Source: Polyangiales bacterium
GTDB taxonomy: Bacteria > Myxococcota_A > Polyangia > Polyangiales > Ga0077539
Length of the DNA: 64,000 nucleotides
Assembly: GCA_046351555.1 (NCBI GenBank)
Contig: JAXLYI010000006.1
Location: forward strand, 58,284 to 122,283
Direction: 5' to 3'
Numbering within the stretch: position 1 is the stretch's first letter; every line of letters starts with the position of its first letter. Positions 5,937-27,872 of the stretch are shown piece by piece. Below the pieces are notes generated by a model that saw only the letters and a list, made by a program, of their open reading frames with translations, had not been told where the DNA came from and ran no database searches. The translations under genes and the position numbers were made by a program.

Positions 5937-5953
5937 CGCTCCCCCTCCCCGCG

Positions 5954-5970
5954 CGGGCGCCGTGCGCCCG
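5954..5970 (+). terminator. GC-rich hairpin immediately after the stop of the 4623..5936 lipoprotein gene (stem cgggcgc / loop cgt / stem gcgcccg); no U-tract
   Basis: A perfect 7-bp inverted repeat with a 3-nt loop sits 18 nt after the TGA. It is intrinsic-terminator-like, but function is uncertain in this high-GC genome. Confidence 0.2.
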
Positions 5971-6006
5971 TGTGCCCGCGGCGGTTCCGTGGTAACGGTG
6001 TCCGCC

Positions 6007-6630
6007 GTGGAACCGACTCAGCTCATCCTGGTGCTCGTCGTCATCGCCGCCTTCGGCCTCGCCGCGGCGATGGTGATGCGCTCGATCGACAAGCGCGACC
6101 GCCTCGCCCTCGACGCGCAGGTGCTCGCGCTCTGGGAGGCCCTCGCGCTGGCCCGCCACGACCTCCGCCTCGAGGTCAACGAGCGGGGCGAGCGCTTCCT
6201 CCACGGCACCGCGCGCGGCGTCCGCTACACGCTCTCCGTCCAGTCGCCGGGCCGCGGGTGGTCGGGCACGCTCGGCGCGACCGCGCGCGTCGCCCGCGAG
6301 CCCCCCGCGCGCCTGGTGGTGTGGCCCTCCAACGACCTGCCCGCCTGGGCCCCGCGCCTGCCGCGCGCGGTGAAGACGGGGCACGACGAGTTCGACCAGG
6401 TCTTCACGCTGCACACCGACGACGAGGCGCTCGCGCTCGCGGCCGTCGACGCCTCGGTGCGCGAGGCGCTGCTCGGCATCCCGGGCGCGGCGCTGGTGTG
6501 CGACGAGGGCAAGCTCACGCTGGTCACCGGCCTCGACGAGCGCCAGGTGGACGCCGAGCTCGTCGATCAGGTGCGCGCGGTGGTGGCGGGCGTGTGCGCG
6601 CCCCCTGAGGTCGCCGCGTCGGGCGCGTAG
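6007..6630 (+). CDS. single-pass membrane protein, function unknown
   Basis: The GTG start at 6007 gives VEPTQLILVLVVIAAFGLAAAMVMRS, a TM helix. The ORF track starts earlier at the ATG at 5962 (MRPCARGG..), which lacks an RBS. Coding-type composition. Confidence 0.45.
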   Translation: MEPTQLILVLVVIAAFGLAAAMVMRSIDKRDRLALDAQVLALWEALALARHDLRLEVNERGERFLHGTARGVRYTLSVQSPGRGWSGTLGATARVAREPPARLVVWPSNDLPAWAPRLPRAVKTGHDEFDQVFTLHTDDEALALAAVDASVREALLGIPGAALVCDEGKLTLVTGLDERQVDAELVDQVRAVVAGVCAPPEVAASGA

Positions 6631-6672
6631 CGCGCGGGCCCTGTACCGCCCGCGCGCCGACCGCGATGTCCC

Positions 6673-8271
6673 TCAGATGCGGAAGGTGAACTGGAGCGAG
6701 CCCGCGGTGAACGACGCGCGGTAGACGCCCTGGTTGATGGTGCACGCCTCGGCGCCCTGGCTGGTGCTGGGCTCGGGGCAGCTCGAGAGCGAGATCTGGT
6801 TGCCCATCGCGTCGGCCGGCGTGGTGACGGCGCGGCGGCCGGTGCTCGCGTTGTTGTCCTGGAAGAAGAAGTGCCCGAAGCCCGCGCTGACGGTGAGCCA
6901 GCGCCAGCGGTAGGAGAGCCCGGCGTGGACGCTCGCGCCGGCGTAGGCGGGCAGGTGGATCTGGGCGAGGTTGGGCGAGGCGCCCGCGGTCTCGTACGAC
7001 ATGCCGGCGCGGACGGCGAGGGTGCCGGGGAGGACGTTCCAGTCGCCGCCGAGGCGGAAGCCGACGACGTCGGAGAGGGCCGACTCGATGGTGATGGTGG
7101 GCGGCGCGTTGACCATGGTGCCCGCGGAGTCGATGCGGATGCCGCCGGTGTTGGCCAGCGAGGTGCGCGAGAGCATGCTCGTCGCCTCGTAGGTGAACAT
7201 CGCCTCGACGTCGAAGACGTCGTCGGTCATCGGGTCGTAGGTGCCGGTGCCGTCGTCCTGGGTGGGGCGCCCCGCCCGCGGGAGGTTGTAGCGGACGCCG
7301 GCGCGGAGCGTCCACGGCAGGCTCACCTGCATCGAGTTGATGGTGAAGCTGCTGTTGATGACGTTGGCCGGGTTGGCGGCGTAGAGGTTGGCGCGGTTGC
7401 TGGCCGTGCCCGACGCGTCGATCGGCCCGTTGTAGTGGAACTGCGCGCCGAACGACAGGAAGCGCGTCGGCAGCACCTGCACCGCGGCGCTCCCCGCGAT
7501 GAAGAAGGCCGAGGCGTCGAGGCCGATGAAGACGTCCGACGAGGGCGACTGCGCCTGCGAGCGCACCGCGTTGGCGTTGAGGCCGAACTGGAAGTTGGCG
7601 AACGAGGGCTCGATGCCGATGCCCACGCGCAGCCAGCGCGTCGGCTGGACGCTGACCGCCACCACCGGGTGCAGCACCAGGAGCTGCTTGCGGTAGAGCA
7701 GGTTGCGCGCGGGCGACGGGACCATGAAGCTCCCCATCGCGTCGCTCACGGTGAGCCGGTCGGGGAAGTTCTGCGCGCTGCCCTGGGTCGACGGCGCGAA
7801 CACCCCGAAGCCGATGCCCACGTAGCGGTTGATGCGGTACGTGCCGAGGAGCATCGGCGCGAGGGCGACGCTCGGCTCCTTGCACACCTCGGGGTAGGGC
7901 GTGCGGCCGTTGATGTAGCGCGCGTCGCCGCTGTTCGGCGCGGTCTCGAACACCGTGCCCGTCGGGTCGATCGCGGCGCCCGCCATGCTCCCGGTGCCCT
8001 CGAAGTTGCCGCCGTTGCTCGTGCGCTGGAAGCAGTGGTCGAAGGCGCCCACGTTGGACGAGAGCGTGAGCTGGAGCCCCGGCAGCCCCACGATGGCCGC
8101 GACGTTGTGCATCACCGCCGAGGGGTCGCTCGAGCGCACCATGAACGCCCCGCCGCGCCCGAAGGCCGTCGCGCCGTTCTCCGGGAGCTCGACCCCGTAG
8201 GCCCACGCCCCCGAGGGGGCCGCCGCCACCGCCGCCAGCACCAGCGCCGTTACCGTCTTGGAATTCCGCAT
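6673..8271 (-). CDS. outer-membrane beta-barrel protein, FadL/OmpP1/TodX-like
   Basis: The signal peptide is MRNSKTVTALVLAAVAAAPSGAWA. The sequence is rich in alternating beta-strand patterns and Gly/Asn/Ser loops. The C-terminal ...LQFTFRI ends in aromatic-x-hydrophobic, typical of Bam-dependent OMPs. Size is about 530 aa. Confidence 0.5.
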   Translation of the reverse strand: MRNSKTVTALVLAAVAAAPSGAWAYGVELPENGATAFGRGGAFMVRSSDPSAVMHNVAAIVGLPGLQLTLSSNVGAFDHCFQRTSNGGNFEGTGSMAGAAIDPTGTVFETAPNSGDARYINGRTPYPEVCKEPSVALAPMLLGTYRINRYVGIGFGVFAPSTQGSAQNFPDRLTVSDAMGSFMVPSPARNLLYRKQLLVLHPVVAVSVQPTRWLRVGIGIEPSFANFQFGLNANAVRSQAQSPSSDVFIGLDASAFFIAGSAAVQVLPTRFLSFGAQFHYNGPIDASGTASNRANLYAANPANVINSSFTINSMQVSLPWTLRAGVRYNLPRAGRPTQDDGTGTYDPMTDDVFDVEAMFTYEATSMLSRTSLANTGGIRIDSAGTMVNAPPTITIESALSDVVGFRLGGDWNVLPGTLAVRAGMSYETAGASPNLAQIHLPAYAGASVHAGLSYRWRWLTVSAGFGHFFFQDNNASTGRRAVTTPADAMGNQISLSSCPEPSTSQGAEACTINQGVYRASFTAGSLQFTFRI

Positions 8272-8335
8272 GGGACTCGCTTCGCCTCCGTTGAAACCGC
8301 GGGCCGACCGGTGCACGGTACCGCACCGCACGCCG

Positions 8336-9112
8336 ATGCCGCCGGCCCGTCTCCGCCGTCTCGCCCGTCTGGGCCTCGTCCTCGCGATGCTCGCAACACT
8401 GCGGGCGCTCAGGCAAGAGCCAACTGCACGGCGCCACCTCGACGCCTTCTGGGCGGCCGCCCAGGGCCACGTGGTCGCCCTGGCCGACCGCCTCCGCGAC
8501 GGCGGCGCGGAGGGCGTCGCGCTCTACGCGCTGGTGTACGTGGCGGGCTCGCTCCTCGCCCTGCCCCTGTGGCTCACCTCGGGCATCGCGGGCTACGCCT
8601 GGGGCTTCGGCCGCGGGCTCGCGACGGCGGTGCCCGCCCTCACCCTCGGCGCGACGTGCGCCTTCTGGGCGGGCCGCGCGGTCGCGACGACGCGCCTCGG
8701 CGACGCGCTGCGGGCGCGGCCCCTCTTCCGCCAGGTCGACCTCGTGGTGCGGCGCGACGGGCTCCGCATCACCACGCTCCTCCGCGCGTCGCCCGTGATG
8801 CCACAGAACTTCTTCCCCTTCCTCCTCGGCGCGACGCCGCTGCGCACGCGCGACTTCTCGCTCGCCACCGCGGTGGGGCTCCTGCCGATGACGTGCGTCC
8901 ACGTGTACGCCGGCTCGCTCCTGCACCGCGCGTCCGACCTCTTCGCCGAGGGCCGCGGCCTGCGCGACCCGGCCACGCTGGCGAAGCTCGCCGCGGGCGT
9001 CGCGGTGACGGCGGTCACGATGACGATCGCGGTCCGCCGCTCGCGCGCGCTCATCGCGCAGGCCTACGCCGAGGCCGACGCGGCGGCGAACGCCCCCCCG
9101 CGCGCGCCCTGA
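8336..9112 (+). CDS. DedA/SNARE-associated (TVP38/TMEM64) family membrane protein
   Basis: It has a polytopic membrane profile. The conserved DedA segment reads RASPVMPQNFFPFLLGATPLRTRDFSLATAVGLLP. Start chosen is MPPARLRRLARLGLVLAML. Confidence 0.65.
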   Translation: MPPARLRRLARLGLVLAMLATLRALRQEPTARRHLDAFWAAAQGHVVALADRLRDGGAEGVALYALVYVAGSLLALPLWLTSGIAGYAWGFGRGLATAVPALTLGATCAFWAGRAVATTRLGDALRARPLFRQVDLVVRRDGLRITTLLRASPVMPQNFFPFLLGATPLRTRDFSLATAVGLLPMTCVHVYAGSLLHRASDLFAEGRGLRDPATLAKLAAGVAVTAVTMTIAVRRSRALIAQAYAEADAAANAPPRAP

Positions 9113-9116: not shown

Positions 9117-10892
9117 TCACGCCTCCAGCGCGTACACGTGGACGAGCCCGCGCCGCGTGCCGACCGCGAGGCGCCCGTCCGGCGCGAACGCGAGCGCCGT
9201 CACCTCGTCGCTCTCGCCGGCGAGCGTGAAGCGCGCGAGCAGGGCGCCGTCCGCGCAGCCGTGGACGAGCACCTGGTCCCGCGACGAGACCGCGCACCGC
9301 GCCCGACCGTCGTCGAGGGCCGACGCGCCGGTCGCGTCGAGGCGCCGGCTCCACCGGACGCTCTCGTGCGCGAGGTCCCAGCAGGCGAGTTCGTTGACGT
9401 AGTCGTAGCCGTTCTCGACCTCGTGCGTGCCGCGGACGATCGCCGCGCCGGCGTCGGGCCACGGCATCCGCGCGGTGAGGTAGGCCCAGTTCATCAGCCG
9501 GTGCTGGCCCGTCGGTGCGCCGTCGGCCAGCGTCAGGAGGCGCAGCTCGTTCTCCACCGCGAAGATCACGTCGCCGCCGCGCACCCAGAGCCCCTCCAGC
9601 CACACGAACGAGCCGCTCACGTGGGTGCGGCGGGTCGCCTCCTGGTGGCGCCACGCGACGGCGCGCCCGAGCGGCCAGCGTGCGACCCACGACGGCGTCG
9701 CGTCGCCGCCGCCGCCGACCACGAGCGAGTCCCCGTCGGGCGCCCAGGCGAGGTGCGTGAGCCGCGCGAAGTCGTGCTCGAAGGCGACCGCCCCGGAGGC
9801 GACCTCCACCACCTGCACGCCGCCGTCACGCAGCACCGCGAGGCGCGCGCCGTCGGGGGAGAGCTCGGTGTGCCGGTGCGCGGCGCCGAGGTCGACGGCG
9901 GTGTGCTCGCCCGCCGCGACGTCCCACACCCGAACGACGGGGTCGCCCTCGGCCTGCACCGCGACGCGCTCCCCCAGCGGCCACCGCACCGCCGCGATCG
10001 GCCCCTCGGCGAGCGAGCCGCCGCACAGCGCCTCACCGCTGCGTCCGTCGAACACCTGGGCCGCGCACGCGCCCACCCGCGCCGCCACCCACCGCGCGCC
10101 CTCGACCAGCGCGACCCCGGCGAGGAAGCGCCCCCGCGCGAGCTCTCGCACGCCTCCCGCGCGGTCGATCACCCACAGCGCGTCGTCGGTGACGGCCGCG
10201 ATGGTGCGCCCGTCACGCGTCGAAGCGAGGGCGATCACGGGCCGCTTGAATCGCCACCGCCGGGCCTCGCGCGCCGCGGCGAGGTCCCACAGCACGAGCG
10301 CCCCGTCGCCCGTCGCGAGGAGCACCGCGCCGTCGTCGAGCGCGTGGGCGACCGACACCTTCGCGACGCCCGGCGCCGGCAGCTCGACGCGCGTCGCGAG
10401 GTCGACCAGCGCCGCGGTCTTCTTGCGCGTGACCCCCGCGGCGACGACGCCCCCGGGCGACACCGTCCAGCGCTTCGCGGGCGACGGCTCGAACAGCTTG
10501 CGCACGCGCCCCTTCTCCCACCACCGCAGGTACGCCTGCCCGTACAGCACGCGCGCGGGGGACCCGAGGGCCGCGTGGGGGCTCCACTGGTTGAGCCCGC
10601 TTTCGATCGCGGGCCCGCGGGCGCCGGTCCGCGCGTCGAGGGTGCCGACGTTCTTCTGGCCCACGAGCAGCAGGGTGTCGCCCTCGGCGGCGATGGCGCG
10701 GCAGTCGAGGGTGGGGTTGGCGCCGCGCGGTGCGCCCGTCGGAACCGCGAAGCCGAAGACGCCCCGCTCGGTGCCGATCCAGAGCGTGTCGGTGCCGTCG
10801 TGGGCGAAGAGGACGCAGCGCGTCCGGGCCAGGGCGAGCGTCGCCTCGCCGAGCGTCGTCGCGCGGCGGGCGCGCAGGGGGAGCCGGTCCAT
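9117..10892 (-). CDS. WD40/PQQ-like beta-propeller repeat protein
   Basis: Repeated ..VxxVAFSPDGxxLAxGxxDGxVxVWD..-like units occur (LAFAPDGRLAVGTRRGLVHVY, LAWAPDGDSLVVGG, ELSPDGARLAVLRDGGVQVVEV). ORF is 591 aa, in frame and well terminated. Confidence 0.6.
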   Translation of the reverse strand: MDRLPLRARRATTLGEATLALARTRCVLFAHDGTDTLWIGTERGVFGFAVPTGAPRGANPTLDCRAIAAEGDTLLLVGQKNVGTLDARTGARGPAIESGLNQWSPHAALGSPARVLYGQAYLRWWEKGRVRKLFEPSPAKRWTVSPGGVVAAGVTRKKTAALVDLATRVELPAPGVAKVSVAHALDDGAVLLATGDGALVLWDLAAAREARRWRFKRPVIALASTRDGRTIAAVTDDALWVIDRAGGVRELARGRFLAGVALVEGARWVAARVGACAAQVFDGRSGEALCGGSLAEGPIAAVRWPLGERVAVQAEGDPVVRVWDVAAGEHTAVDLGAAHRHTELSPDGARLAVLRDGGVQVVEVASGAVAFEHDFARLTHLAWAPDGDSLVVGGGGDATPSWVARWPLGRAVAWRHQEATRRTHVSGSFVWLEGLWVRGGDVIFAVENELRLLTLADGAPTGQHRLMNWAYLTARMPWPDAGAAIVRGTHEVENGYDYVNELACWDLAHESVRWSRRLDATGASALDDGRARCAVSSRDQVLVHGCADGALLARFTLAGESDEVTALAFAPDGRLAVGTRRGLVHVYALEA

Positions 10893-10901: not shown

Positions 10902-11612
10902 CTACCCCGCATGCACCGACCCCTCGGCGCGCGCTTCGACGACGCGGTCGATGACGCGGTGGTAGAAGCGCGCCACGTGGGCGAGGTAGCCCGCGAAGCC
11001 GAGCGCCTGGAGGGCGCCGAGCGCGACGTGCCAGCCCCCGACGAGGAAGACCCCGGGCGCGGCGAAGACCAGCGCCGTCGCGGCGACCCACGCGGCGACG
11101 GTGGCGGGCATGAACGCGCGGATGTTGAGCTCGTGCTCGCGCTCGAGGGCGTCGAGGAGCGCGGCCCCGGCGGGGCCCGCAACATCGCGGCGGCGCGCCC
11201 GGTACATCCGCCGCTCGCGCACGAACATCCCCCAGAAGAGGAGCACCATCGCGGCGCCGACGGGGTACCAGCGCTCGGGCCGGCCGGCCTGGGAGAAGAG
11301 CGCGGCCTCCAGCATGGCGGCGAGGAAGTAGAGGAAGTTGTGCTCGAGGTCGAGCGGCCACCGGATGACGGTGAAGGCGTGGAGCACCGCGCGCGTCCAG
11401 AGGCCGCACGCGATGAAGATCCCCGCCAGAAGGTAGGGCACCGGCGCGAGCCGCCCCTCCACGAACACCGACCGCGCGCCCTCGACGAGGAACGACAGCG
11501 CCATCCCCTGGACGATGCTGATGACGGTGAGTTCGAAGCTCGCGACGGCGCCGTCGAGCTCGTGGATCGTGCGGGCGCGGCGGGCGCCGAGGTCGGGCGG
11601 CGGGTCGTTCAC
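10902..11612 (-). CDS. polytopic membrane protein, function unknown (co-operonic with the downstream beta-propeller gene)
   Basis: There are four to five hydrophobic helices. Its stop lies 10 nt upstream of the next gene's start on the same strand. Confidence 0.5.
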   Translation of the reverse strand: MNDPPPDLGARRARTIHELDGAVASFELTVISIVQGMALSFLVEGARSVFVEGRLAPVPYLLAGIFIACGLWTRAVLHAFTVIRWPLDLEHNFLYFLAAMLEAALFSQAGRPERWYPVGAAMVLLFWGMFVRERRMYRARRRDVAGPAGAALLDALEREHELNIRAFMPATVAAWVAATALVFAAPGVFLVGGWHVALGALQALGFAGYLAHVARFYHRVIDRVVEARAEGSVHAG

Positions 11613-11668
11613 GGCGCCGTCGGTAGCACCGCCGCCGGGGGCGGGTCTACGGCGGGGCGCGGCGCCCG

Positions 11669-12358
11669 TCAGCCCGGCAGCTTCGCGAGCAGCCCGTCGG
11701 CCCAGTCGCGCAGGGCCTCCAGCTCGCCGCGCACCGCCGCCCGCTCGTCGTCGCTGCCGCCCTTCACCACGGTCACCGCCCGCCGCTGCCAGGCGCCCTT
11801 CGCCACCCGCTCACGGAAGCCGCGCACCTGCGCCGCCACCCGCGCCGGGGTGAGGCGAACCTCGCGCCCGCGCCCCTGCGCCTCGAGCACGCCCGCGACG
11901 TAGGCCCGCGTCGCCCGCTGCGTGAGCTTCATCGCGGTCACGTGCTGCGCGGCCTTGCGCATCGCGGCCTCGTCGCCGAGCGGGAGGAGCAGCTCCTTGC
12001 GCCCGGGCTCCAGGTTGCGCCACGCCTCGTCGGTGATCCGCTTGTCGTGCGCCGCGATGTGGAGCGCCACGTAGAGCAGCCGCTCGCTCAGCCGCAGCGT
12101 GGGCCCGCCCGCGCGGGACAGGAGCTCGCGCCACAGGGGGCTGTCGCGCCGCCCCTCCAGCGCCGCCGACGCGTCGTCGTCGAACACGTGGACCAGCAGC
12201 CAGCGCCCGTAGGAAACGAGCGCGTCCTCCATCACGTCGCGGGTCTCCTCCGCGCGGCGGAGCACCTCGGCGAGCACGCGCCGCTGGGCGGCGTCGAGGC
12301 TGTCGGGGGCGCGGCGGGCGAGCTCGGCGGAGGCGGCGGGGGCCTGCGGCTTCGTCAT
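11669..12358 (-). CDS. hypothetical cytoplasmic protein
   Basis: Clean 230-aa ORF with high GC3. The second Met (MTKPQ..) is preferred as the start. Confidence 0.45.
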   Translation of the reverse strand: MTKPQAPAASAELARRAPDSLDAAQRRVLAEVLRRAEETRDVMEDALVSYGRWLLVHVFDDDASAALEGRRDSPLWRELLSRAGGPTLRLSERLLYVALHIAAHDKRITDEAWRNLEPGRKELLLPLGDEAAMRKAAQHVTAMKLTQRATRAYVAGVLEAQGRGREVRLTPARVAAQVRGFRERVAKGAWQRRAVTVVKGGSDDERAAVRGELEALRDWADGLLAKLPG

Positions 12359-12450
12359 GAAACGCAACGCTACGCCCGCGGCGCGCGGAGGAGCAGAGGG
12401 AGCGCGCGGGGGCGGTGTCGCGGCGCCGGACAGGGCGTCCCGGTGGGGCG

Positions 12451-12475
12451 GAAGGCTATGGCGCCATAGTCTTCG
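12451..12475. repeat. left copy of a perfect 25-bp direct repeat gaaggctatggcgccatagtcttcg (contains the 14-bp palindrome ctatggcgccatag)
   Basis: The sequence is identical to 14364..14388 in the same orientation. It sits 13 bp beyond the abiEii stop. Confidence 0.85.
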
Positions 12476-12487
12476 GGGGGAGCCCCC

Positions 12488-13345
12488 TCACGGGTCGATG
12501 GGGAGCTCATCGACCAGCGCCAGGAGTTCGCTCCAGGCGTCGTCGAAGGCGACGAAGAGCGTCCGCGTGGTGCTCGCGAGCCCGTCGTAGTCCTGGGCCG
12601 CGCGGCGCTTCACCTCGGGGTCGCGAAACGCCGTGCGGGAGACGACGATGCCCCGTGCGGCGGACTTGCGGCGGAGGAAGTCCGCGACCTTGTCCGCGTC
12701 GAGCGGGCGCTGCCGGCGGGTGACCGCGATGTCGAGGAGGTCCTGGCGGCGGTAGCGGTTGCGCACGGGCTGCTGGAGCAACGAGCGCAGCTTCTCCGCG
12801 ACGATGTCCTCGCGCGAGCTCACGCGCAGCTTGTGGACGCCCGCGGTGTCGACCGGCTCGTCCTCGCACACCACCTCGTTGAGGCTCACGTCCAGAGGGA
12901 TCACCAGCGGGCTGGTCTGCCCGCCTTCGAGCCGCTTCCGCAGCGGGGCCTCGTCGGTGAGCGCGTAGCCGACGGAGACCGCGTAGGTGACGAAGGTGGC
13001 GTCGGGCGCGGGCGGCTGTCGCTTCACGCTGTGGACGCGGTAGAGCGTGCCGAGCTTCCGGCCCGTCGCGGCGAGGCTCTCCTGCAGGAGAGTCTTCAGT
13101 TCGTCGCCCTCCAGCGGGTCGGTCGAGGTGAAGTCGAGGTCCTTCGTGCTCCGGTTGGGCGACCACACGAAGTCGAGCGCGTTGCCGCCCTTGAGCACCA
13201 GCGTCGCGCTCAACTGGCGCGAGTCCGACACCGCCCGCAGGATGCCGTACTGCGCGAAGCGCGCCCGCGCCTCCTGCACCGTGACCTTGTTCGCCTTCGC
13301 CCACCCGCCGATGTCGAGGAAGGCGCGCGGGTACTTCTCGTTCAT
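12488..13345 (-). CDS. abiEii: AbiEii/AbiGii-family nucleotidyltransferase toxin (type IV TA / abortive infection, DUF1814)
   Basis: 285 aa. The N-terminal nucleotidyltransferase-like motifs are LVLKGGNALDF....KDLDF. There is a 4-bp overlap with the upstream abiEi-like gene. Size and architecture match AbiEii. Confidence 0.65.
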   Translation of the reverse strand: MNEKYPRAFLDIGGWAKANKVTVQEARARFAQYGILRAVSDSRQLSATLVLKGGNALDFVWSPNRSTKDLDFTSTDPLEGDELKTLLQESLAATGRKLGTLYRVHSVKRQPPAPDATFVTYAVSVGYALTDEAPLRKRLEGGQTSPLVIPLDVSLNEVVCEDEPVDTAGVHKLRVSSREDIVAEKLRSLLQQPVRNRYRRQDLLDIAVTRRQRPLDADKVADFLRRKSAARGIVVSRTAFRDPEVKRRAAQDYDGLASTTRTLFVAFDDAWSELLALVDELPIDP

Positions 13346-14247
13346 GGCTCACCCCTGCGGAGGAAGTCGACGGGGGCGTTGAGGGACAGGCTCCACCGCT
13401 CGTCGTAGGTCGGCGCGTAGGGGGCGCTCGCGCACAGTCGGCTGGACCCGCCGCGCTTCGCGCCCGCGCGCCACCGCTCGAGCGCCTCGTGCGTGAGCCC
13501 GAGGGCCTCCAGCACGAAGCCCGCGCGCTGCCGCAGGACGCCGACGTCGAGCTGGTCGACGACCCGCACGATCGCGGGGAGGTCGAGCAGGTCGCGCGAT
13601 TTCGCCCAGCCGCGCAGCACCGCGCCGATGCCGCCGCAGGCGTCGGGGTCGATGAGGCCGTCCACGAGCGTGCGCTCGGGGGTCGTGACTCGCAGCGACC
13701 ACCCCTCGGGCGCGTACTCCCCGACGCCCCCGAAGCGCTCGGGTTGCACGCGATGCCATCGCACCGGCCGCCCGAGGATCTCCGCAGGGAAGCGGGCCGG
13801 CGCCCGCGGGAGGTCGGCCCAGTCGTCGGGCGACGTCCCGGGCGGTACCCCGAAGTCGCCGCGCCCCGTCGGCACCGTCGCGTGGACCACCTTGGGTTGG
13901 TCGTCCGTGAGGTCGTGGAAGACCATCGCGGTGTGGTGGCTCGCCGCCACGCACGGCTGCGTCTCCATCAGCACCTCGAGTTCGCCGACGCCGCCGACGT
14001 CGGCGTAGGGGACGATCACCTCGTACACGCCGCCGACCCCCTCCAAGGGCCGCAGATCACCGGCGTTCACCATCCGGTCGAGCATCCGCTTCGCGTCGGC
14101 CACCGTCCTGGGGGGCTGCGGGCGTGAGGTCGGCCCCGCCTCGCGCACCGCCCGTTGGAGCAGGATCATGGCGCGCCAGTCGGAGACCACATGGCGCCGC
14201 TCCATCGCCAGTCGGTGCAGCAGGTCTCGGACGACGTTGACTCCCAA
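13342..14247 (-). CDS. abiEi: AbiEi-family antitoxin/transcriptional regulator (type IV TA system)
   Basis: About 300 aa. The N-terminus is winged-helix-like. It lies immediately upstream of, and overlaps (ATGA), the AbiEii-like gene. A palindromic operator sits in its promoter. Confidence 0.6.
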   Translation of the reverse strand: MGVNVVRDLLHRLAMERRHVVSDWRAMILLQRAVREAGPTSRPQPPRTVADAKRMLDRMVNAGDLRPLEGVGGVYEVIVPYADVGGVGELEVLMETQPCVAASHHTAMVFHDLTDDQPKVVHATVPTGRGDFGVPPGTSPDDWADLPRAPARFPAEILGRPVRWHRVQPERFGGVGEYAPEGWSLRVTTPERTLVDGLIDPDACGGIGAVLRGWAKSRDLLDLPAIVRVVDQLDVGVLRQRAGFVLEALGLTHEALERWRAGAKRGGSSRLCASAPYAPTYDERWSLSLNAPVDFLRRGEP

Positions 14248-14272
14248 AGATCTTGCCCCCCGCCCCGCGGCT

Positions 14273-14323
14273 TAGACTGTCGGCCTCAGGACGACAGTCT
14301 ACGCCGCGTCGAGGAAATGTCAA
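14273..14323 (-). promoter_or_regulatory. abiEi promoter (minus strand TTGACA-N16-TAGACT) with an overlapping perfect 10-bp inverted repeat tagactgtcg-N9-cgacagtcta (candidate AbiEi operator)
   Basis: The inverted repeat is at 14273..14282 and 14292..14301. The reverse complement of 14318..14323 is TTGACA, and the reverse complement of 14296..14301 is TAGACT. This leaves about 40 nt of 5' UTR before the abiEi start. Confidence 0.5.
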
Positions 14324-14363
14324 CTTTTGGCTACAACTTCGTCCGAGCGTTCCAGCGGGGCTG

Positions 14364-14388
14364 AAGGCTATGGCGCCATAGTCTTCGC
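14364..14388. repeat. right copy of the perfect 25-bp direct repeat gaaggctatggcgccatagtcttcg
   Basis: Identical to 12451..12475. It lies 11 bp from the stop of the convergent methyltransferase gene and just outside the abiEi promoter. Confidence 0.85.
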
Positions 14389-14398
14389 GCGGCCCCGC

Positions 14399-15232
14399 CT
14401 ACCCCGCGCGGGCGGTGAAGACCCACGCGGCGCTGTCGAGCGTGACGCCGCCGTCGCGCAGGTGAGCCCGCAGCGCCTCGCGCACTGCCTCGCGGACGCG
14501 CGGGACGAGGTGCGGGTTCTCGCGCGCGACCTGCCCGCACGGCCCGACCTGGAGCGACACCTCCAGCGCGTCGTCGGGGTCGCCGCCGCCCACGCGCATC
14601 GGAACATCGATCGCCTCGGCCGCGACGTCGCGGAAGCCCGCGCCCGACAGGATCGCGCGCACGCGGACGTCGTCGGCGAAGCCGAAGGGCCCCGGCGCGC
14701 CGGGCGGCGACGTCGACGGCGGCGCGTCGAGCAGCGGCGCGACGGCGGCGAGGGGGACGGTCATCCACGGGTTGAGCTCGGCGGCGCGCCACGCGACGAA
14801 GGCCACCGGCGCGCCGGGCGCGAGGGCCGCGTGGAGCCGCGCGAACGCCGCCGCCGGGTCGTCGAAGAACATCACCCCGAAGCGCGAGTAGAGCGCGTCG
14901 AAGCGGCCGTCGAACGCGTGCGTCTGCGCGTCGGCCTCGACGAAGGCGACGTCCGCGCGGCCGGCCGAACGCTCGCGGGCGCGGGCGAGCATCGGGGCGG
15001 AGACGTCGACCCCGAGCGCGAGCCCCGCGGGGCCCACGGCGTCGGCGAGACGGAGGGTGGTGTCGCCGCAGCCGCACCCGACGTCGAGAACGCGCATCCC
15101 CGCGGCGAGCGGCAGGCGCGCGAGGGCGGCGTCGCCGAAGGGGGCGAGCTGGGCGTCGAGGAGGCGCTGCATGGCGACCCAGCGGGGGCCTGAGCGCTCG
15201 TTCCAGTTGGCGATCTGGTCGGTGTTGTTCAT
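14399..15232 (-). CDS. class I SAM-dependent methyltransferase
   Basis: Motif I is VLDVGCGCGDTTLRLA. An acidic post-I loop and the downstream motifs are typical of Methyltransf_11/25 proteins. Confidence 0.7.
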   Translation of the reverse strand: MNNTDQIANWNERSGPRWVAMQRLLDAQLAPFGDAALARLPLAAGMRVLDVGCGCGDTTLRLADAVGPAGLALGVDVSAPMLARARERSAGRADVAFVEADAQTHAFDGRFDALYSRFGVMFFDDPAAAFARLHAALAPGAPVAFVAWRAAELNPWMTVPLAAVAPLLDAPPSTSPPGAPGPFGFADDVRVRAILSGAGFRDVAAEAIDVPMRVGGGDPDDALEVSLQVGPCGQVARENPHLVPRVREAVREALRAHLRDGGVTLDSAAWVFTARAG

Positions 15233-15319
15233 CGCGAGGGGCCGCGAGGATACACCCCGCGCGTCACCCGAGGAGGGCGACCCAACGCGCGTCCCCCACG
15301 ATCAACCACGTGACGGGCG

Positions 15320-15781
15320 TCACCGCAGCGCGGGCGTGCCGTCGGCCTCGCCGCACTCCAGCGCGTCGGCGGGCGCCTCGCGCATGGCGCCACGCAGCGA
15401 GACGGGGTCGCGGTTGACGCCCTCGTACGACCCGCGCAGGCGCGCGAGCAGCCCCGCGTCGTCGGCGCACACGCGCGCCGCGTCGCCCTCCTCGTCGACC
15501 GAGAAACGCGCCCCGCCGCGCGTGGCGTAGACGCTGCCGATCCACCCGGGGCCGGGGCTCTGCACCTCCGTGAAGGGCCCCAGGCGGCGCGCCAGCACGA
15601 GCACGATCGCGCCCCACGTCACGCCCCCGCCCTGGCATCGCCGCGACGCGAACAGCGCCCGCGTCGACGCGCTGTTCGCCGTGGCCGTGATGTCGAAGCA
15701 GGCGGGCGCGGCCTTGGGGCACCCCGCCTGTGCGACGGCGAGCAGGGCGACCGAGAGCAGGTGCAGGCGGGGCGTCGTCAC
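15320..15781 (-). CDS. small lipoprotein, function unknown
   Basis: The GTG start gives VTTPRLHLLSVALLAVAQAGC, a lipobox. The ORF track extends 41 codons further upstream without any signal-peptide logic. Confidence 0.4.
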   Translation of the reverse strand: MTTPRLHLLSVALLAVAQAGCPKAAPACFDITATANSASTRALFASRRCQGGGVTWGAIVLVLARRLGPFTEVQSPGPGWIGSVYATRGGARFSVDEEGDAARVCADDAGLLARLRGSYEGVNRDPVSLRGAMREAPADALECGEADGTPALR

Positions 15782-15888
15782 GCGCGCTCCGTACCATCGC
15801 GGTGAGCGGCGGGGCAACGGCGCGCCCCGCGCCGATCTATTCGATTGACGCAGGCGCGGGCGCCGCTTCCAATCGCGCGTGCACTGAC

Positions 15889-16599
15889 ATGCGCGACGTG
15901 ACACGACGCGAGCTCCTCACCGTCGCCGCGGGCACGCTCCTCGGCGCCTGCGCGGACGTGACGGCCGCGGGCCCCGACGCTGGCGACGTGGGCGACGACG
16001 TGGGCCCCGACGCTGGCGACGCGGGTGACGACGCCGGCCCCGACGCCGCGCCCGACGCAGCGCCCCTCGACACGGCGCCCCCCGACGTCGCGCCCGATCG
16101 CCCACGCGATGGAGCCTCTACGCCCGACGCGCCCCTCGACGCGCGCGCGGACCTCGCGCCGGACGCGCCCCCCGACGCCCGCCCCGACGCGGCGCCCGAC
16201 GCACGCCCCGACGCGGCACCCGACGCATCGCTCGACGCGGCCCCGGACGCGCCGCCGCCGTGCGGCCTCACCGACCGCTACCTCGCGTCGCTCCCGGTCG
16301 CTTCCGTGCCCGCGCGCGGCGGCGTGGTCGACCCCGACCTGCGCGTGGTGGTCGCGCGCGACGCCCGCGGCGTCTACGCCTTCTCGGCGGTGTGCCCGCA
16401 CTTCGGCTGCGTCGTCGAGGTGGGAACCGGCGCCTCCACCGTGTGCCCGTGCCACGGCTCCACCTTCGACGACGACGGCACGCGGCTCCGCGGCCCGGCG
16501 ACGCGCTCGCTGATCAACCACCCGATCGCCCTCTGCCTGGGCCGTGTGTACGTCGACCGCTCGCGCTCCGTCCCCGCCGGCACCCGCACGCCGGGCTGA
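15889..16599 (+). CDS. Tat-exported Rieske [2Fe-2S] domain protein with an Asp/Pro/Ala-rich linker
   Basis: The twin-arginine signal is MRDVTRRELLTVAAGTLLGACA. A low-complexity PDA(A/R)PDA linker follows. The Rieske boxes are CPHFGC ... CPCHGS. Confidence 0.75.
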   Translation: MRDVTRRELLTVAAGTLLGACADVTAAGPDAGDVGDDVGPDAGDAGDDAGPDAAPDAAPLDTAPPDVAPDRPRDGASTPDAPLDARADLAPDAPPDARPDAAPDARPDAAPDASLDAAPDAPPPCGLTDRYLASLPVASVPARGGVVDPDLRVVVARDARGVYAFSAVCPHFGCVVEVGTGASTVCPCHGSTFDDDGTRLRGPATRSLINHPIALCLGRVYVDRSRSVPAGTRTPG

Positions 16600-16609
16600 A
16601 AGGTCTCTC

Positions 16610-17833
16610 ATGCGCCCCTCCACCCGTCTCCGCACGAGCCTCCTGACCGCCCTCGCGACGATGGGCCTCCTGCCCGCGTGTGCCAGCACGACCGGCGCCA
16701 GTGACGCGGCCGTCACGCCCGACGTCGCGGCCCTGCCGGACGCGGCCCCGCCGGACGCCGCTGTCCCGGACGCGCCCGCGGACGTGATCACCGCGCCCGA
16801 CGTCCCGCAGACGTGCCCGGTGATGCCCTCGACGCGCTGCCTGAGCCCCGCGGACTCGGTGCGCAATGTGATGTTCCCGCCGGGCAAGGTGACGGTGCCC
16901 GACGGGGGGCTGCCGGTGCCCGACGGGGCCGTGCGCCCGAGCGGGTGCGCGCGGCCCGAGGTCGTGTCGAACGACTGCTGCAACACCGCGTCGGCGCTGC
17001 GCGAGGAGGGCGGGGCGTGCTGTTACACCTTCTGCACCCAGGCGTGCTGCGGGCGCCCGCTGCGCGTCGGCGGGGCGGCGCGGGTCGCGGGGGTGGAGGC
17101 GCGACGCGACTGGGGCGCGGCGTCGCCGGGGACGTCGTCGGTCGACCCGGCCACGCGCGCGGCGCTCGCGGCGGCGTGGCGCGAAGACGCGCGGCTCGAG
17201 CACGCGTCGATCGCGTCGTTCGCGCGCTTCACGCTGGAGCTCGTCGCGCAGGGGGCGCCGCCCGAGCTCGTCGCCGACGCGCAGCGCGCGGGGCTCGACG
17301 AGGTCGACCACGCGCGCCGGTGCTTCGCCCTCGCCGCCCGCCACGGCGCCGGCGACCTCGGCCCCGCCCCGCTGGACCTCTCCGGCTTCGCGCTCGCGGG
17401 CTCGCTGGAGGATCTCCTCGACGCGGTGATCGCCGAGGGGTGCGTGGGCGAGACGCTCTCGGCGTTCCTGGCGGACGCGCAGCGCGAGCGGGCGACCGAC
17501 CCGGCGGCGCGCGAAGCCCTCGCGGTGATCGCCGCGGACGAGTCCCGCCACGCCGCCCTCGCGTGGCGCTTCGCGGCCTGGGCGCTCGGGTCGCGGCCCG
17601 ACCTCCGCCCGGCCGCCGCGCGGGCCTTCGCATCTGCTCTCGGCGGCCCCCTCCCCCGTCCGCGCCGCGAGCCCGCCGACGTCGACCCCGCCGCGTGGAA
17701 CGCCCACGGCCGCCTCACCGCGCCGCAGGTCGACCGCGCGCTCGACGAGGGCGTCCGCGCGGTGATCCGACCCTGCCTCGCGGCGCTGCTCGCTCAGCCC
17801 GCGAGCACGACGCGCAGCGCGGCGTCGGCGTAG
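16610..17833 (+). CDS. lipoprotein with an N-terminal vicinal-Cys cluster and a C-terminal ferritin-like (diiron-type) four-helix domain
   Basis: The lipobox is LLPACAS. CC pairs occur in SNDCCNTAS...GGACCYTFCTQACCGRP. The C-terminal half carries three E-x-x-H-type motifs (LEHAS, DEVDHARR, DESRHAAL). It starts 10 nt after the Rieske stop, with a GAAAGG RBS. Confidence 0.6.
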   Translation: MRPSTRLRTSLLTALATMGLLPACASTTGASDAAVTPDVAALPDAAPPDAAVPDAPADVITAPDVPQTCPVMPSTRCLSPADSVRNVMFPPGKVTVPDGGLPVPDGAVRPSGCARPEVVSNDCCNTASALREEGGACCYTFCTQACCGRPLRVGGAARVAGVEARRDWGAASPGTSSVDPATRAALAAAWREDARLEHASIASFARFTLELVAQGAPPELVADAQRAGLDEVDHARRCFALAARHGAGDLGPAPLDLSGFALAGSLEDLLDAVIAEGCVGETLSAFLADAQRERATDPAAREALAVIAADESRHAALAWRFAAWALGSRPDLRPAAARAFASALGGPLPRPRREPADVDPAAWNAHGRLTAPQVDRALDEGVRAVIRPCLAALLAQPASTTRSAASA

Positions 17834-17840
17834 CGCCCCT

Positions 17841-18488
17841 TCACCCCGCGGAAGCATCGGGCGGCACCGGCACGAACGCCTCCGCGTGCCGCCGCACCCA
17901 CGCCATCAGCAGCGCCGGCAGCTCCATCGTCGCGAACGTCTCCAGCGCCTTCGCGGCCTTCGGGCTGCCCAGCTTCACGCGCCCCGGCGTCCGCGTGGTC
18001 CCCTTCGCGACGGCCTCGAACTGCGCCGCGAGCGCCTCCAGCCCGAGCGCGCGGGCGGCCTCCGGGGTGTGGGCGACGAGGGCCGGGTCGCAGTCCATGA
18101 AGTACATCGCGAGGCCGTTGCGTGAGCACTGCCCGGCGAGCCCGTCGAGCGTGAGCCACGCGCGGACGGCCGGCGGCGCCGCCTCCACCCTCCGCCACTC
18201 CAGCAGGGTCGCCATGAGCCAGCCGTCGAGCACCTCGGCCCACAGCTCGGCGTCGGGGGCGTCCCGCACCCACTCCGGCGTCGGCTCCCACGGCGGCACG
18301 CGCACGAAGCCGCCCGCGAGCTGCGCGGCGATGAGCGCGTCCTGCTCGGCCCGCGGGATCGTCCGCGTGACGGGCTCCGGGTCGTCGTCGAACGCGATCT
18401 CGACGCGGCTCTGCGCCCCCTGCGGGGACACCGCCCACGTCACCCCCTCGGCCTCGTTGCGCAGCGTCGTGCGGAGTCTCCGGCTCAT
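17841..18488 (-). CDS. hypothetical cytoplasmic protein
   Basis: 216-aa ORF from MSRRLRTTL. Coding composition. No recognizable motif. Confidence 0.4.
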   Translation of the reverse strand: MSRRLRTTLRNEAEGVTWAVSPQGAQSRVEIAFDDDPEPVTRTIPRAEQDALIAAQLAGGFVRVPPWEPTPEWVRDAPDAELWAEVLDGWLMATLLEWRRVEAAPPAVRAWLTLDGLAGQCSRNGLAMYFMDCDPALVAHTPEAARALGLEALAAQFEAVAKGTTRTPGRVKLGSPKAAKALETFATMELPALLMAWVRRHAEAFVPVPPDASAG

Positions 18489-18585
18489 CGGCGGCGATTC
18501 TCCACCGCCCGCGCGCGCCCGCCAAAGAAACGCCGCGCCGCGCCCCGTGGACACGCGCGCGAGGGTCGCGGTATCTGTCGTCCGC

Positions 18586-19656
18586 GTGCGCGTCGGTTCG
18601 ATCGTCACGGTGCTCGTCGGCGCGGCCTGCGGGGCGCTCCATGCGGGCCCGTCGTGCGCCCAGTCGACGCGCGTGCGGCTGCGCTACGAGGCCGCCGCGG
18701 ACGCCGCGTGCCCCGACGACGTCGCCCTCCGCCGGGCCGTGACGCGCCGCCTCGGGTACGACCCCTTCGACGAAGGCGCGGCGGCGGCGGTCACGGCCAC
18801 CATCCGGCGCGCCCGCCGCGGGCTGCGCGCGTCGCTCGCGGTCGAGGGGCTGCGCGGCGGACGCCCGCGACAGATCCGCACGACCCACGGCGACTGCGCC
18901 GTGCTCGTCGACGCGCTCGCCGTCTCGCTCTGCGTGCTCATCGACCCGCGGAGCCTCACGCGCGCGGCCCCGCCCGAAGAAACACCCGCACCGCCTCCGC
19001 AAGCGCCGCCACCGCCTCCGCAAGCGCCACCACCAACGGCGGCAACACCGCCGCCTCCGCCCCCTGCCCTGCCGCCGCCACCACCGCCCGCCGCGCCGCC
19101 GCGCACGCGCCGCGGGGCGTTGGACGTTCGGTTCGAAGTCGGCGCGCTGCTCGGCGCCGTCCCCGGCGAGGACGCGGCCGCGCAGGTGCAGGCGCGCCTC
19201 GCGCTGGGGCTCGGCTGGCGCCGCGGGCGCCTCGTGCTCGCGGGGTACCTCTGGGGCTCGTTGAGCGGGAGCCAGGCGCTGGTGGTCCGTTCGGCGGGCG
19301 GCCAGGCGCAGGTGACCGTGCACGGCGTCCCCGTGGGCGTCGCGCTCATGCCGTGCGTCGACCTCCGCCCCGTCGAGCTCTGCGGGTCCGTGCAGGTCGG
19401 GGCTTTCGTCGGGTGGGGCGAGGGGTACCCCGACCCGCAGACCAACGTCGGGGCGCTGCTCGCGCTCGGCGCGCGGGCGGTGTGGACGCTGCCGTTCTCG
19501 CTCGGGCCGGTCGCGCCCTACGTCGCGCTCGACGCGTCGTGGATGGCCGTCCGCCCCGAGCTCCACCTCACGGTCGCGCGCGAAGACCAGAGCGTCTGGA
19601 CGCCCGCGGGGTACCTCCTCCACGGCGGCGCCGGGGTCCGCGTCGCGCTCCCGTGA
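18586..19656 (+). CDS. secreted protein with a proline-rich spacer, immediately upstream of the ECF sigma gene
   Basis: The GTG start gives a signal-like IVTVLVGAACGALHA. The spacer PAPPPQAPPPPPQAPPP is encoded by a 24-bp tandem DNA repeat (about 19000..19050). The C-terminal half is rich in beta-strand-like alternation. It stops 14 nt before the sigma-factor ORF. Confidence 0.45.
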   Translation: MRVGSIVTVLVGAACGALHAGPSCAQSTRVRLRYEAAADAACPDDVALRRAVTRRLGYDPFDEGAAAAVTATIRRARRGLRASLAVEGLRGGRPRQIRTTHGDCAVLVDALAVSLCVLIDPRSLTRAAPPEETPAPPPQAPPPPPQAPPPTAATPPPPPPALPPPPPPAAPPRTRRGALDVRFEVGALLGAVPGEDAAAQVQARLALGLGWRRGRLVLAGYLWGSLSGSQALVVRSAGGQAQVTVHGVPVGVALMPCVDLRPVELCGSVQVGAFVGWGEGYPDPQTNVGALLALGARAVWTLPFSLGPVAPYVALDASWMAVRPELHLTVAREDQSVWTPAGYLLHGGAGVRVALP

Positions 19657-19669
19657 TGCCCTCCGTCGA

Positions 19670-20272
19670 TTGCGTGAGAATCGGGGCCGCGACCCGGCAA
19701 TGGGGTGGGCCGTGTTGACGTCGCTCCTGCGCGCCGAGGACGAAGCCCCCGACCCGACGGTCGACGCGGAGGCGTTCCGCGCGCTCTACCAGCGCGAGTT
19801 CGACTTCGTCTGGAACGTCGTCCGCCGCCTCGGCGTCGCCGAGCGCGACCTGCCCGACGTGGTTCACGACGTGTTCGTGGTGGTGTACCGGCGCTTCTCC
19901 ACCTACGACCCCTCGCGGCCGCTGCGCCCGTGGCTCTTCGGCATCGCCTTCCGGGCGCAGGCCTCGCACCGCCGTCGGCTGCGCGAGGCGGGCCGCGCCG
20001 ACCGTGAGCCCGACACCCTCCAGGGCGACGCCCCCGCGCCCGACGAGCGGATGATCGAGCGCGAGCGGCGCGCGCTGGTCCACACGATCCTGCAGGGCCT
20101 CTCGCCCGAGCACCGCGCGGTGCTGGTCGGGCACGAGCTGGAGGGGCTCCCGATGGCCGCGCTCTCCGAGGCGCTCGACGTCCCGGTGAAGACGCTCTAC
20201 TCCCGGCTGCGCGCCGCGCGCGAGGAGTTCGTCGCCGCGATGCGCCGCCACGCGCTGCGAGGTGCGCGATGA
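19670..20272 (+). CDS. ECF-type RNA polymerase sigma-70 factor
   Basis: Region 2 reads FRALYQREFDFVWNVVRRLGV...DVVHDVFVVVYRRF. Region 4 reads LSPEHRAVLVGHELEGLPMAALSEALDVPVKTLYSRLRAARE. The alternative ATG at 19700 (MGWAV..) may be the true start. Confidence 0.75.
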   Translation: MRENRGRDPAMGWAVLTSLLRAEDEAPDPTVDAEAFRALYQREFDFVWNVVRRLGVAERDLPDVVHDVFVVVYRRFSTYDPSRPLRPWLFGIAFRAQASHRRRLREAGRADREPDTLQGDAPAPDERMIERERRALVHTILQGLSPEHRAVLVGHELEGLPMAALSEALDVPVKTLYSRLRAAREEFVAAMRRHALRGAR

Positions 20273-20961
20273 GCGACGACCTCCCGCCGCTGCCGCCCGA
20301 GGCCCGCGCGCTCTTCGACGCCGCGCGCGAGGCTCCGCCCCCGCCCGACGCGGCGCGGGCGGCCGTGTACGAACGGGTGCTTCGAACGGTCGCCGCGCCC
20401 GGCCCTGGCAACCCGCCCGCAGCCGCGGCGCCCGCGTCGTCGCTCGCGGTCAAGTCCGTCGCCGCGGTCGGCGCCGCGCTCGCGGTCGCCGCCGGCGTCA
20501 CGGTCGCGCTCTGGTCGGGCACGCGCGTCCCCGCGCCGCGCACCGTCCCCGCAGCGGCACCGCGCGTGGCGCCCGCATCGCCCGCGCCACCCGTCGCTCC
20601 CGCGGCGCCGCGCGAGGCGTTGCACGACACCGATGCCTCCGCCGCGCCCGCCGACGCGGCGTCCCCACGCCCCCACGCCCGCGCGCCGGAGGACGACCTC
20701 GCCGCGGAGGTCGCGCTCGTCGACGAAGCCCGCGCGACCCTCGCACGCGGCGACGCGGCCGGCGCGCAGCGCGTGGTGCGGCGGTACCGACACCTGTCGC
20801 ACCGACGGCTCGACGCGGAGATGGACGTGCTGGAGGTCCGCGCGGCGGTGCTCGGCCACGACCCCGCGGGCGCCGGGCGACTGGCCGAGCGGTTCCACCG
20901 TCGCCACCCCGGGAGCGTGCTCGCCGCGCAGGTCGACGACGCGGTGCGCGGCGCCCGATGA
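20269..20961 (+). CDS. single-pass anti-sigma factor (putative)
   Basis: It overlaps the sigma stop by 4 bp (ATGA). Architecture is a short cytoplasmic N-terminus, one TM helix (LAVKSVAAVGAALAVAAGVTVALW) and a helical periplasmic domain. Confidence 0.5.
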   Translation: MSDDLPPLPPEARALFDAAREAPPPPDAARAAVYERVLRTVAAPGPGNPPAAAAPASSLAVKSVAAVGAALAVAAGVTVALWSGTRVPAPRTVPAAAPRVAPASPAPPVAPAAPREALHDTDASAAPADAASPRPHARAPEDDLAAEVALVDEARATLARGDAAGAQRVVRRYRHLSHRRLDAEMDVLEVRAAVLGHDPAGAGRLAERFHRRHPGSVLAAQVDDAVRGAR

Positions 20962-21602: not shown

Positions 21603-21736
21603 CGGGCGACGTCGATTCGGTGAGAAGTCGCCGCGCGGTCGCGCAATCGGGGTCACCGAGGACGCGCCGAGTCGTCCCTGGCCTGCCGCCGGGGACGTGG
21701 GGGCGACGTCTGCGCTCGGGTCACAAGGAGCGAACC

Positions 21737-22837: not shown

Positions 22838-22853
22838 GGGGGCGCGGCGCGCG

Positions 22854-25976: not shown

Positions 25977-25986
25977 CGGCGGCACC

Positions 25987-27871: not shown

Positions 27872-27872
27872 G

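Follow-up and report, generated by a model that had tools for sequence, protein, structure and literature searches.

A 64,000-nt stretch of a Polyangiales bacterium genome (contig JAXLYI010000006.1; the whole stretch is hereafter called the window) carries an AbiE operon, abiEi-abiEii, which is bracketed by two identical direct copies of a short palindromic repeat. Comparison with related loci supports the view that the operon and one copy of the repeat move as a discrete, small and apparently non-autonomous cassette of ~1.9 kb. The repeats themselves are members of a dispersed intergenic palindrome family, here named PAL, one copy of which lies just upstream of a conserved gene, geneX, the left neighbour of the operon. 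We favour, with a probability of roughly 55%, the reading that the cassette inserted into the leader between PAL and geneX, the target being duplicated on insertion. The PAL family, the boundaries of the cassette, a second insertion site, the empty state of that site and an internal deletion of the abiE genes are each seen directly in the loci compared.

Results

The exact 25-mer GAAGGCTATGGCGCCATAGTCTTCG is present in two direct copies, PAL_L at 12451-12475 (~93 nt 5' of the geneX start codon) and PAL_R at 14363-14387 (the promoter-proximal end of the cassette), while no chance match is expected according to 100 dinucleotide-preserving shuffles. The original prediction had recognised the pair, its direct orientation and the position of the left copy correctly; the right copy, however, lies one base to the left of the proposed 14364-14388. 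The similarity of the two copies does not end at ~32 bp, as had been thought, but reaches 54 nt with 83% identity between the extended left repeat (12435-12488) and the extended right repeat (14347-14400), and the palindrome within each is not 14 but 24 nt long (GAAGGCTATGGCGCCATAGTCTTC, self-complementarity 92%). The extended right repeat is composed of PAL, a one-sided extension (gttccagcggggctg) and GC-rich outer bases. Both window copies bear the extension on the abiE/geneX side, which accounts for most of the 54-nt similarity. No third copy of the 14-nt core CTATGGCGCCATAG exists in the window, even with two mismatches permitted (~0.05 expected).

Only four features lie between the repeats, a promoter, an operator palindrome, abiEi and abiEii, in agreement with the prediction. 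The abiEii stop codon is 12 nt from the left copy, and the 11 nt between the right copy and the stop codon of the adjacent methyltransferase gene were confirmed. The latter gene had been described as convergent, however, all genes of the repeat-flanked stretch, from geneX to the methyltransferase, are on the minus strand, thus the methyltransferase gene reads toward abiE and is co-directional with it. Identical direct repeats at both cassette junctions are perfect over 25 nt in the window and over 36 nt in the related locus L030.

Evidence for movement comes from a second site. In the loci L044, L045 and L049, the abiE module has an FG-GAP/ASPIC gene on one side and an adenosine deaminase gene on the other, and geneX is not nearby. 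The module shares 83% nucleotide identity with that of the window (87-88% at the amino acid level; 83-87% for the AbiEii homologues). The homology covers window positions 14387 to 12480 and takes in one PAL with its extension, the promoter and operator, the two abiE genes and a further ~8 nt after the stop codon. The edges of the mobile unit are where the original prediction had placed them. Immediately beyond PAL_R the window and L044 read alike (gcgcgggg versus gtgcgggg), which was dismissed as GC-rich chance, the unrelated flank in L030 being similar. The order PAL_R, extension, -35 box, operator is collinear across six loci; at the second site, PAL is collinear but degenerate (CGAAGACgCTGGtGCCctcaCCT with 8 of 14 core bases in L044, GAAACgCTGGCGCCATgGCCT with 11 of 14 in L049).

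The L049 module is flanked by another direct repeat, perfect over 61 nt and 94% identical over 72 nt. Since the right copy reaches 17 nt into the 5' end of the FG-GAP coding sequence, this repeat is a true duplication. The corresponding repeat has decayed to 34 nt at 91% identity in L044 and L045. In L049 the toxin gene is decaying while the flanking repeat is still perfect, because abiEii is frameshifted (L049:10001-10856; two tblastn pieces in different frames, called as 241 aa). In two empty sites, L050 and L051, whose deaminases are 95% and 88% identical, respectively, the flanking genes are adjacent to each other, with a single copy of the segment and no abiE. Neither contains a PAL, which implies that PAL is not required in the target. 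In a third context, L052 (AbiEii 63% identical), the operon lies near phage-integrase fragments and PLD/MZB genes, and is flanked by repeats of ~120-250 nt with ~83% identity and indels (3785-3903, 5986-6153).

These sites bear on an alternative, the model of the original prediction, in which PAL is the att-like (attachment site-like) core of a site-specific recombinase, and a circular abiE cassette with one PAL integrated at the PAL of geneX, from where it can excise. We consider this unlikely, although the unit at the second site, one PAL plus the insert, is the one expected of a PAL-by-PAL circle, and the anatomy of PAL, 9-11-bp inverted arms around GGCGCC (11-6-11), is reminiscent of tyrosine recombinase sites. 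Against it, the empty second target has no PAL and the flanking repeat there is an unrelated local sequence, and the symmetric spacer of PAL would confer no directionality.

The relatives of the window locus provide further evidence. In L030 and L031 (geneX 97% identical) the order is PAL, abiEi, abiEii, PAL, geneX, a 236-aa gene and a WD40 gene, with 96.7% identity over window positions 14388 down to 10200; beyond PAL_R, an unrelated, divergent membrane-protein gene is found and there is no methyltransferase gene. In L046 (94.7% identical) the methyltransferase gene is present as in the window. L026 and L032-34 (geneX 90% identical), the sole relative devoid of the genes, have a third unrelated gene as right flank, and their two PALs are only 211 nt apart with the abiE genes gone. 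What is left between these PALs, at a collinear offset, is TTGACA, a perfect operator with 15-nt arms and ~20 nt of the abiEi 5' leader; the 54 nt from the abiEi 5' remnant to PAL_L in L032 showed no significant match to the 3' end of abiEii. As both PALs, the promoter and the operator were kept, the genes were lost by an internal deletion and not by repeat-by-repeat excision. This speaks against the excision between the repeats that the original prediction had envisaged, and against the recombinase alternative.

The breakpoints between these close relatives (85-97% identical) fall exactly at the outer edge of PAL_R and lead into three differing right flanks, which a recombinase acting on PAL could explain. 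The DNA beyond PAL_R turns over rapidly, with the PAL edge as breakpoint. L032 positions 1334-8667 match window positions 31788-24439 with 85% identity (blastn), while window 14392-24439 is unmatched by blastn in L032 and in the short stretch of L030 beyond PAL_R. Since the conserved block of L032 corresponds to 24439-31788, window positions 14388-24439 constitute a variable segment of ~10 kb that is absent from L032 by blastn, where instead 1 kb of other DNA links PAL_R to the conserved inositol-monophosphatase block.

A scan with the pattern AGRCTATGGCGCCATAGYCT, using one genome per species, identified 29 PAL loci in 8 metagenome-assembled genomes (MAGs), all of them Polyangiales or Myxococcota, with a maximum of 8 loci per MAG. 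A metagenome collection added 9 loci, which brings the total to 38 besides the two of the window, spread over about a dozen MAGs and metagenomes of Polyangiales. The match L043:1393 (JAEEGL016216219.1, 56% GC) was excluded from the tallies; its AT-rich flanks are unlike those of the family and it is probably due to chance or unrelated. The search for the 25-mer elsewhere was proposed as a check on the cassette-specific att site of the original prediction, and its result, 38 further loci near unrelated genes, is the outcome that had been named beforehand as refuting it. PAL is a lineage-wide, dispersed intergenic palindrome family, of which the two repeats of the window are members.

The consensus of the family is GCCRAAGRCTATGGCGCCATAGYCTTYGGC. 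It consists of an invariant core, the 24-nt palindrome GAAGRCTATGGCGCCATAGYCTTC, to which an extension is joined at one end only; this extension is the same throughout a genome and differs among genomes. The whole unit is ~75 nt long in CAMFHP01, the extension reads CCTWCAGYNNCAYTGGAAT in the lineages of the window, JBILLV01 and CAISKJ01, and PAL copies of other genomes also bear the extension motif CCTWCAGYNNCAYTGGAA of the right repeat. The palindrome is identical across the 8 species-level MAGs and, in contrast to its flanks, does not vary among genomes whose GC content ranges over 62-76%. A weight-matrix scan of all fetched DNA recovered only strong copies; scores of 14-32 bits are not represented, and a gradient of decaying copies is lacking. 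All but one of 40 PAL cores lie outside called genes, in 9 convergent, 12 tandem and 4 divergent gaps, and 11 of 27 are 17-45 nt past a stop codon. The neighbours are ordinary genes, encoding a histidine kinase, a glycoside hydrolase, a photolyase-related protein, a type II secretion system ATPase and a metallophosphoesterase, among others. That PALs occur singly near such housekeeping genes is a further point against an integration site.

The extragenic location, the vicinity of stop codons (in the window, 11-12 nt after those of the methyltransferase and abiEii), the 9 convergent pairs and an RNA hairpin of -18 to -30 kcal/mol would all suit a mobile palindrome of the repetitive extragenic palindrome (REP) type or a hairpin terminator after stop codons, with abiE being flanked simply because each copy follows a stop. 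In this respect PAL resembles the REP elements and bacterial interspersed mosaic elements (BIMEs), which are likewise short, extragenic and often found at gene 3' ends and in convergent gaps. This explanation is nevertheless very unlikely. On the transcribed (minus) strand the hairpin of the left copy is no more stable than those of shuffled sequences (z -0.55), and that of the right copy exceeds them only slightly (z -2.1; z -3.8 for the plus strand of the right copy). No terminator-like site was found in 12250-14500 and PAL has no U-tract, thus an intrinsic terminator was rejected. Unlike the species-specific REPs, PAL is invariant across genera and has no decayed copies; its copy number is apparently low (2 in 64 kb and at most 8 per MAG with the exact 20-mer pattern), it has no GTAG-type head, and no gene for a REP-associated tyrosine transposase (RAYT) was seen in the flanks of the MAG and metagenome loci. 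Moreover, PAL_R stays with abiE in L030 and L032, where unrelated divergent genes stand in place of the methyltransferase gene, and it follows abiE to the second site (L044). As it is abiE, and not the methyltransferase gene, that PAL_R accompanies, a mere REP, terminator or geneX operator is less likely.

Other origins of PAL were also considered. A viral contig collection contained neither PAL nor a relative of geneX, and a phage att or cos origin was dropped. A sigma-54 promoter reading of TGGCGC-N5 was discarded by eye, as the GG-N10-GC spacing is not observed. PAL was absent from an Rfam scan of 11500-15500 in E-value mode, which returned only one chance miRNA match inside abiEi. Separately, we observed that L016:5383 and L028:400, both on CAMFHP010000165.1, are PAL units with 45-nt extensions that are ~90% identical; provided that the two 8-kb blocks adjoin each other, these PALs are ~3 kb apart around a single large AAA-domain gene and may represent a second example of a PAL-bracketed gene.

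GeneX (11669-12358, minus strand) encodes a conserved 229-aa protein of Polyangiales and is probably leaderless, judging from a TAGCGT 7 nt ahead of its ATG. No match was obtained with Pfam, NCBIfam, PADLOC or the sequences of the PDB. It has at least 349 homologues, nearly all unnamed or annotated as "hypothetical", and those with a taxon label belong almost exclusively to Polyangiales or other Myxococcota. The AlphaFold2 model (52 sequences; pLDDT 92) is all helical, and its top 12 Foldseek matches are all Noc or ParB, the best one having a probability of 0.97 and a weak E-value of 0.42. On the basis of this model, the geneX product is a candidate ParB/Noc/KorB-like DNA-binding protein.

PAL adjoins geneX in every lineage examined, which are five or more (the window, L026, L030, L032 with two copies, L021, L004, L005 and L006), an association that is biased because most of these loci were fetched via PAL. 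It lies 5' of geneX in the window, L026/L032, L030 and L021, and 3' of it in L004, L005 and L006, always with the extension between PAL and geneX; geneX is found on either side of the PAL-extension unit, as though inverted relative to the unit. The PAL-leader-geneX unit is duplicated in L032, exactly from the outer PAL edge through the geneX stop codon, and a duplication that begins at the PAL edge is also what a recombinase acting on PAL might produce. L032:14685 is a single-PAL site, in which 18 nt separate the stop codon of a 1107-aa gene from PAL, with the extension and the second geneX following. Altogether, L032 contains three geneX copies within 7 kb (10001-10705, 14809-15503 and 16326-16724), one frameshifted and one partial, and further copies were noticed at L021:1679-2302 and 4125-4379 and at L038:3200-3330 (decayed). 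These multi-copy genes include frameshifted, truncated or decayed versions, each beginning at a PAL.

We infer that PAL may be the binding site of the geneX protein. If PAL were a protein-binding site unrelated to insertion, most plausibly for the geneX product, with one copy acting in the geneX leader and the other regulating or insulating the abiE promoter region to which it belongs, the bracketing of abiE would reflect operon layout; we regard this as improbable. It would fit the invariance of the palindrome between differing flanks, the lack of decaying copies, the constant vicinity of geneX, the resemblance of the geneX model to the DNA-binding domains of ParB, Noc and KorB, and the fixed position of PAL_R, ~40 nt 5' of the -35 box in all abiE copies of the clade including those at the second site. 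It fits poorly with the decay of PAL in L044 and L049, which implies that abiE does not need PAL, with the many PALs that lie up to 45 nt from stop codons and between convergent genes, unusual for operators, and with the variable offset of PAL from geneX (~-48, ~-104 or downstream).

ParB-parS, Noc-NBS (Noc-binding site) and KorB-OB (KorB operator) are the known systems closest to this arrangement, each with a helix-turn-helix protein and a 13-16-bp palindrome in few to tens of copies near the gene. Their DNA-binding domains are the best structural neighbours of the geneX model, and PAL similarly has a perfect 14-bp core and ~8 or more copies per genome, one of which adjoins the gene. In contrast to them, geneX has no ParB N-terminal (CTPase) domain by Pfam and its fold scores are weak, while PAL is strictly intergenic and has an asymmetric extension.

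Neither the cassette nor any of the 29 open reading frames (ORFs) of the window scanned with Pfam was found to encode an integrase, transposase or recombinase domain, which leaves the recombinase alternative without a candidate enzyme there. The best terminal inverted repeats at the cassette ends scored no better than those of shuffled sequences (window, L044 and L049), and a miniature inverted-repeat transposable element, an insertion sequence (IS) or a DDE transposon was rejected for this reason. IS1634/IS1549-type insertion sequences make long, variable target duplications of tens to hundreds of bp. The local direct duplications described here are similarly long and variable (54, 61-72 and >100 nt); unlike these insertion sequences, the cassette has neither a transposase gene nor terminal inverted repeats.

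Small modules, often toxin-antitoxin (TA) modules, between short palindromic sites are also known as the pdif/Xer modules of Acinetobacter plasmids and as attC cassettes, and in both cases, as here, the same family of sites recurs elsewhere in the genome. PAL does not match the dif consensus, and no evidence for Xer was found; its arms being, as we take it, unlike those of dif, a dif/Xer reading was rejected. An integron cassette was likewise rejected, as PAL is 24-30 nt long (attC, 57-141 nt), has no AAC/GTT cores and no R''/R' GTTRRRY cores, and there is no integrase among the 29 window ORFs scanned with Pfam and no intI nearby. Unlike pdif and attC, PALs are chromosomal and mostly single near housekeeping genes, and the second insertion site is PAL-free.

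Judged by sequence, the two genes of the cassette form an AbiE type IV TA/abortive-infection system, a kind already known, and are themselves ordinary. abiEi (13342-14247, minus strand) encodes the predicted antitoxin/regulator, which matches the PADLOC AbiEi model over residues 6-291 (1.9e-35) and Pfam AbiEi_1 only weakly, under its cut-off (1.4e-3, 19.3 bits). AbiEi has 301 aa from a TTG start; the relatives are called from an ATG that corresponds to 14205, which gives 287 aa. abiEii (12488-13345, minus strand) encodes a putative DUF1814 nucleotidyltransferase toxin of 285 aa (PF08843, 4.4e-22, 79.6 bits versus a cut-off of 22.5; PADLOC AbiEii, 1.5e-64) with 385 homologues at E≤1e-20. Exact-sequence look-up of the window AbiEii and of the methyltransferase returned no matching record, and the context was obtained via homologues. 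The GC content of the window is 75.7%, and the GC content at third codon positions of the abiE genes is host-like (0.93-0.97).

Similar to the paradigmatic AbiE systems of Streptococcus agalactiae and Lactococcus, both proteins fit the models, the two genes form a bicistronic operon in which stop and start codons overlap by 4 nt (13342-13345), and an inverted repeat of the kind bound by AbiEi in autoregulation overlaps the promoter. The promoter, TTGACA-16 nt-TAGACT (14296-14323, minus strand), is the sole sigma-70-like site in 12250-14500 (0.0 expected); its TTGACA is kept in L030, L046, L032, L049, L052 and L054, and is TTGACT in L044. The operator-like palindrome TAGACTGTCGGCC-TCA-GGACGACAGTCTA (14273-14301), read from the sequence, has 13-nt arms and overlaps the -10 box, and is presumed to be the site of AbiEi autoregulation. 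Its conserved counterparts in L030, L032, L044 and L049 have perfect arms of 15-21 nt, the longest, of up to 21 nt, being in L030 (760-805). In L054 (1010-1045) the arms co-vary, CTGCCGTCC/GGACGGCAG versus CTGTCGTCC/GGACGACAG, as expected of a site recognised by a protein. The abiE operator of S. agalactiae consists of two 23-bp repeats. Here, unlike in S. agalactiae, a single long palindrome with 13-21-nt arms and a 3-nt centre is found.

Outside the cassette, the class I S-adenosylmethionine-dependent methyltransferase gene (14399-15232, minus strand; Pfam Methyltransf_25, 2.3e-18) also matches PADLOC mad2 (mads_2, 5.5e-19), however, only over the methyltransferase domain; this is probably generic similarity and was not taken to indicate a defence system. 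The other genes of the variable segment include a Rieske-domain ORF, an extracytoplasmic function sigma factor (19316-20272), a ZU5/Stig1-domain protein (21266-22837) and an RCC1-repeat protein (22854-24551). Window positions 15966-16255 contain dense 12-, 33- and 36-nt, CGACGC-rich tandem repeats inside overlapping high-GC ORFs (15691-16599 on the plus and 15778-16986 on the minus strand) and look like a repetitive Pro/Asp/Ala-rich coding region. A putative second TA pair lies at ~25360-26006 (plus strand), as suggested by homology to L032:7116-7765, which is annotated as a PIN-domain toxin with an 88-aa partner in a syntenic block 85% identical to the window.

Discussion

We propose that in the ancestral state one PAL was located just 5' of geneX as part of its leader, and that an abiE cassette with its own sigma-70 promoter and AbiEi operator would have inserted inside this PAL-geneX leader. 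The insertion would duplicate tens of target bases, in this case the PAL unit, placing PAL and extension at each end of the cassette. Both PALs would then stay identical under selection on PAL while the flanks drift to 83%, and the cassette, taking one PAL along, would later move on to the second site, where this PAL decays. That the window repeat arose by duplication on insertion we infer from the 61-72-nt duplication of the second site together with the paralogous single-PAL sites. Empty sites with one copy in relatives had been named beforehand as a confirmation of insertion; while they are found for the second site, no orthologous one (methyltransferase-PAL-geneX without abiE) was recovered for the window locus.

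This last result weighs against the proposed insertion with target duplication, and so do several others. Since the PALs of one genome share both palindrome and extension, any two members of the family would mimic a duplication however they arrived. The breakpoints exactly at the outer edge of PAL_R fit recombination between PALs at least as well. We know of no bacterial mechanism without terminal inverted repeats that routinely duplicates 54-72 nt, and the Pfam search of the cassette and the 29 window ORFs identified no enzyme for the insertion. Finally, neither of the more distant abiE loci L054 and L055 is flanked by a significant repeat; a candidate of 40 nt in L054 scored 26 against 20.4 ± 3.2 and was set aside as not significant.

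A broader and more tentative interpretation, which we think rather less probable than not, is that Polyangiales possess a hitherto undescribed protein-site pair made up of the geneX product and PAL, in which PAL would mark some 10 or more intergenic positions per genome and serve as a preferred breakpoint or capture point, and the geneX product would be ParB/Noc/KorB-like without the CTPase domain. The abiE cassette would move separately, by a mechanism that is free of transposase and inverted repeats and duplicates 50-250 nt. If true, this would account for the location of the abiE cassette inside PAL, for the divergence of relatives exactly at the PAL edge, and for the duplication, inversion and pseudogenisation of PAL-geneX.

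As far as we searched, a TA cassette with flanking duplications of 54 to >100 nt and neither transposase nor inverted repeats is undescribed, and so is the PAL/geneX family (PAL is absent from Rfam, and no model of Pfam, NCBIfam or PADLOC matches geneX). In the searchable literature, no paper was found that contains the 14-mer core, nor any that ties abiE to such flanking repeats. The case also illustrates that perfect repeats around a defence operon are not in themselves proof of an att site, and that a genome-wide check of the repeat is needed first. AbiE itself is well known, however, the movement of small defence or TA modules that have no recombinase of their own is poorly documented; here the boundaries of such a cassette are set to ~10-20 nt by filled, empty and second sites, and its target duplications are unusually long.

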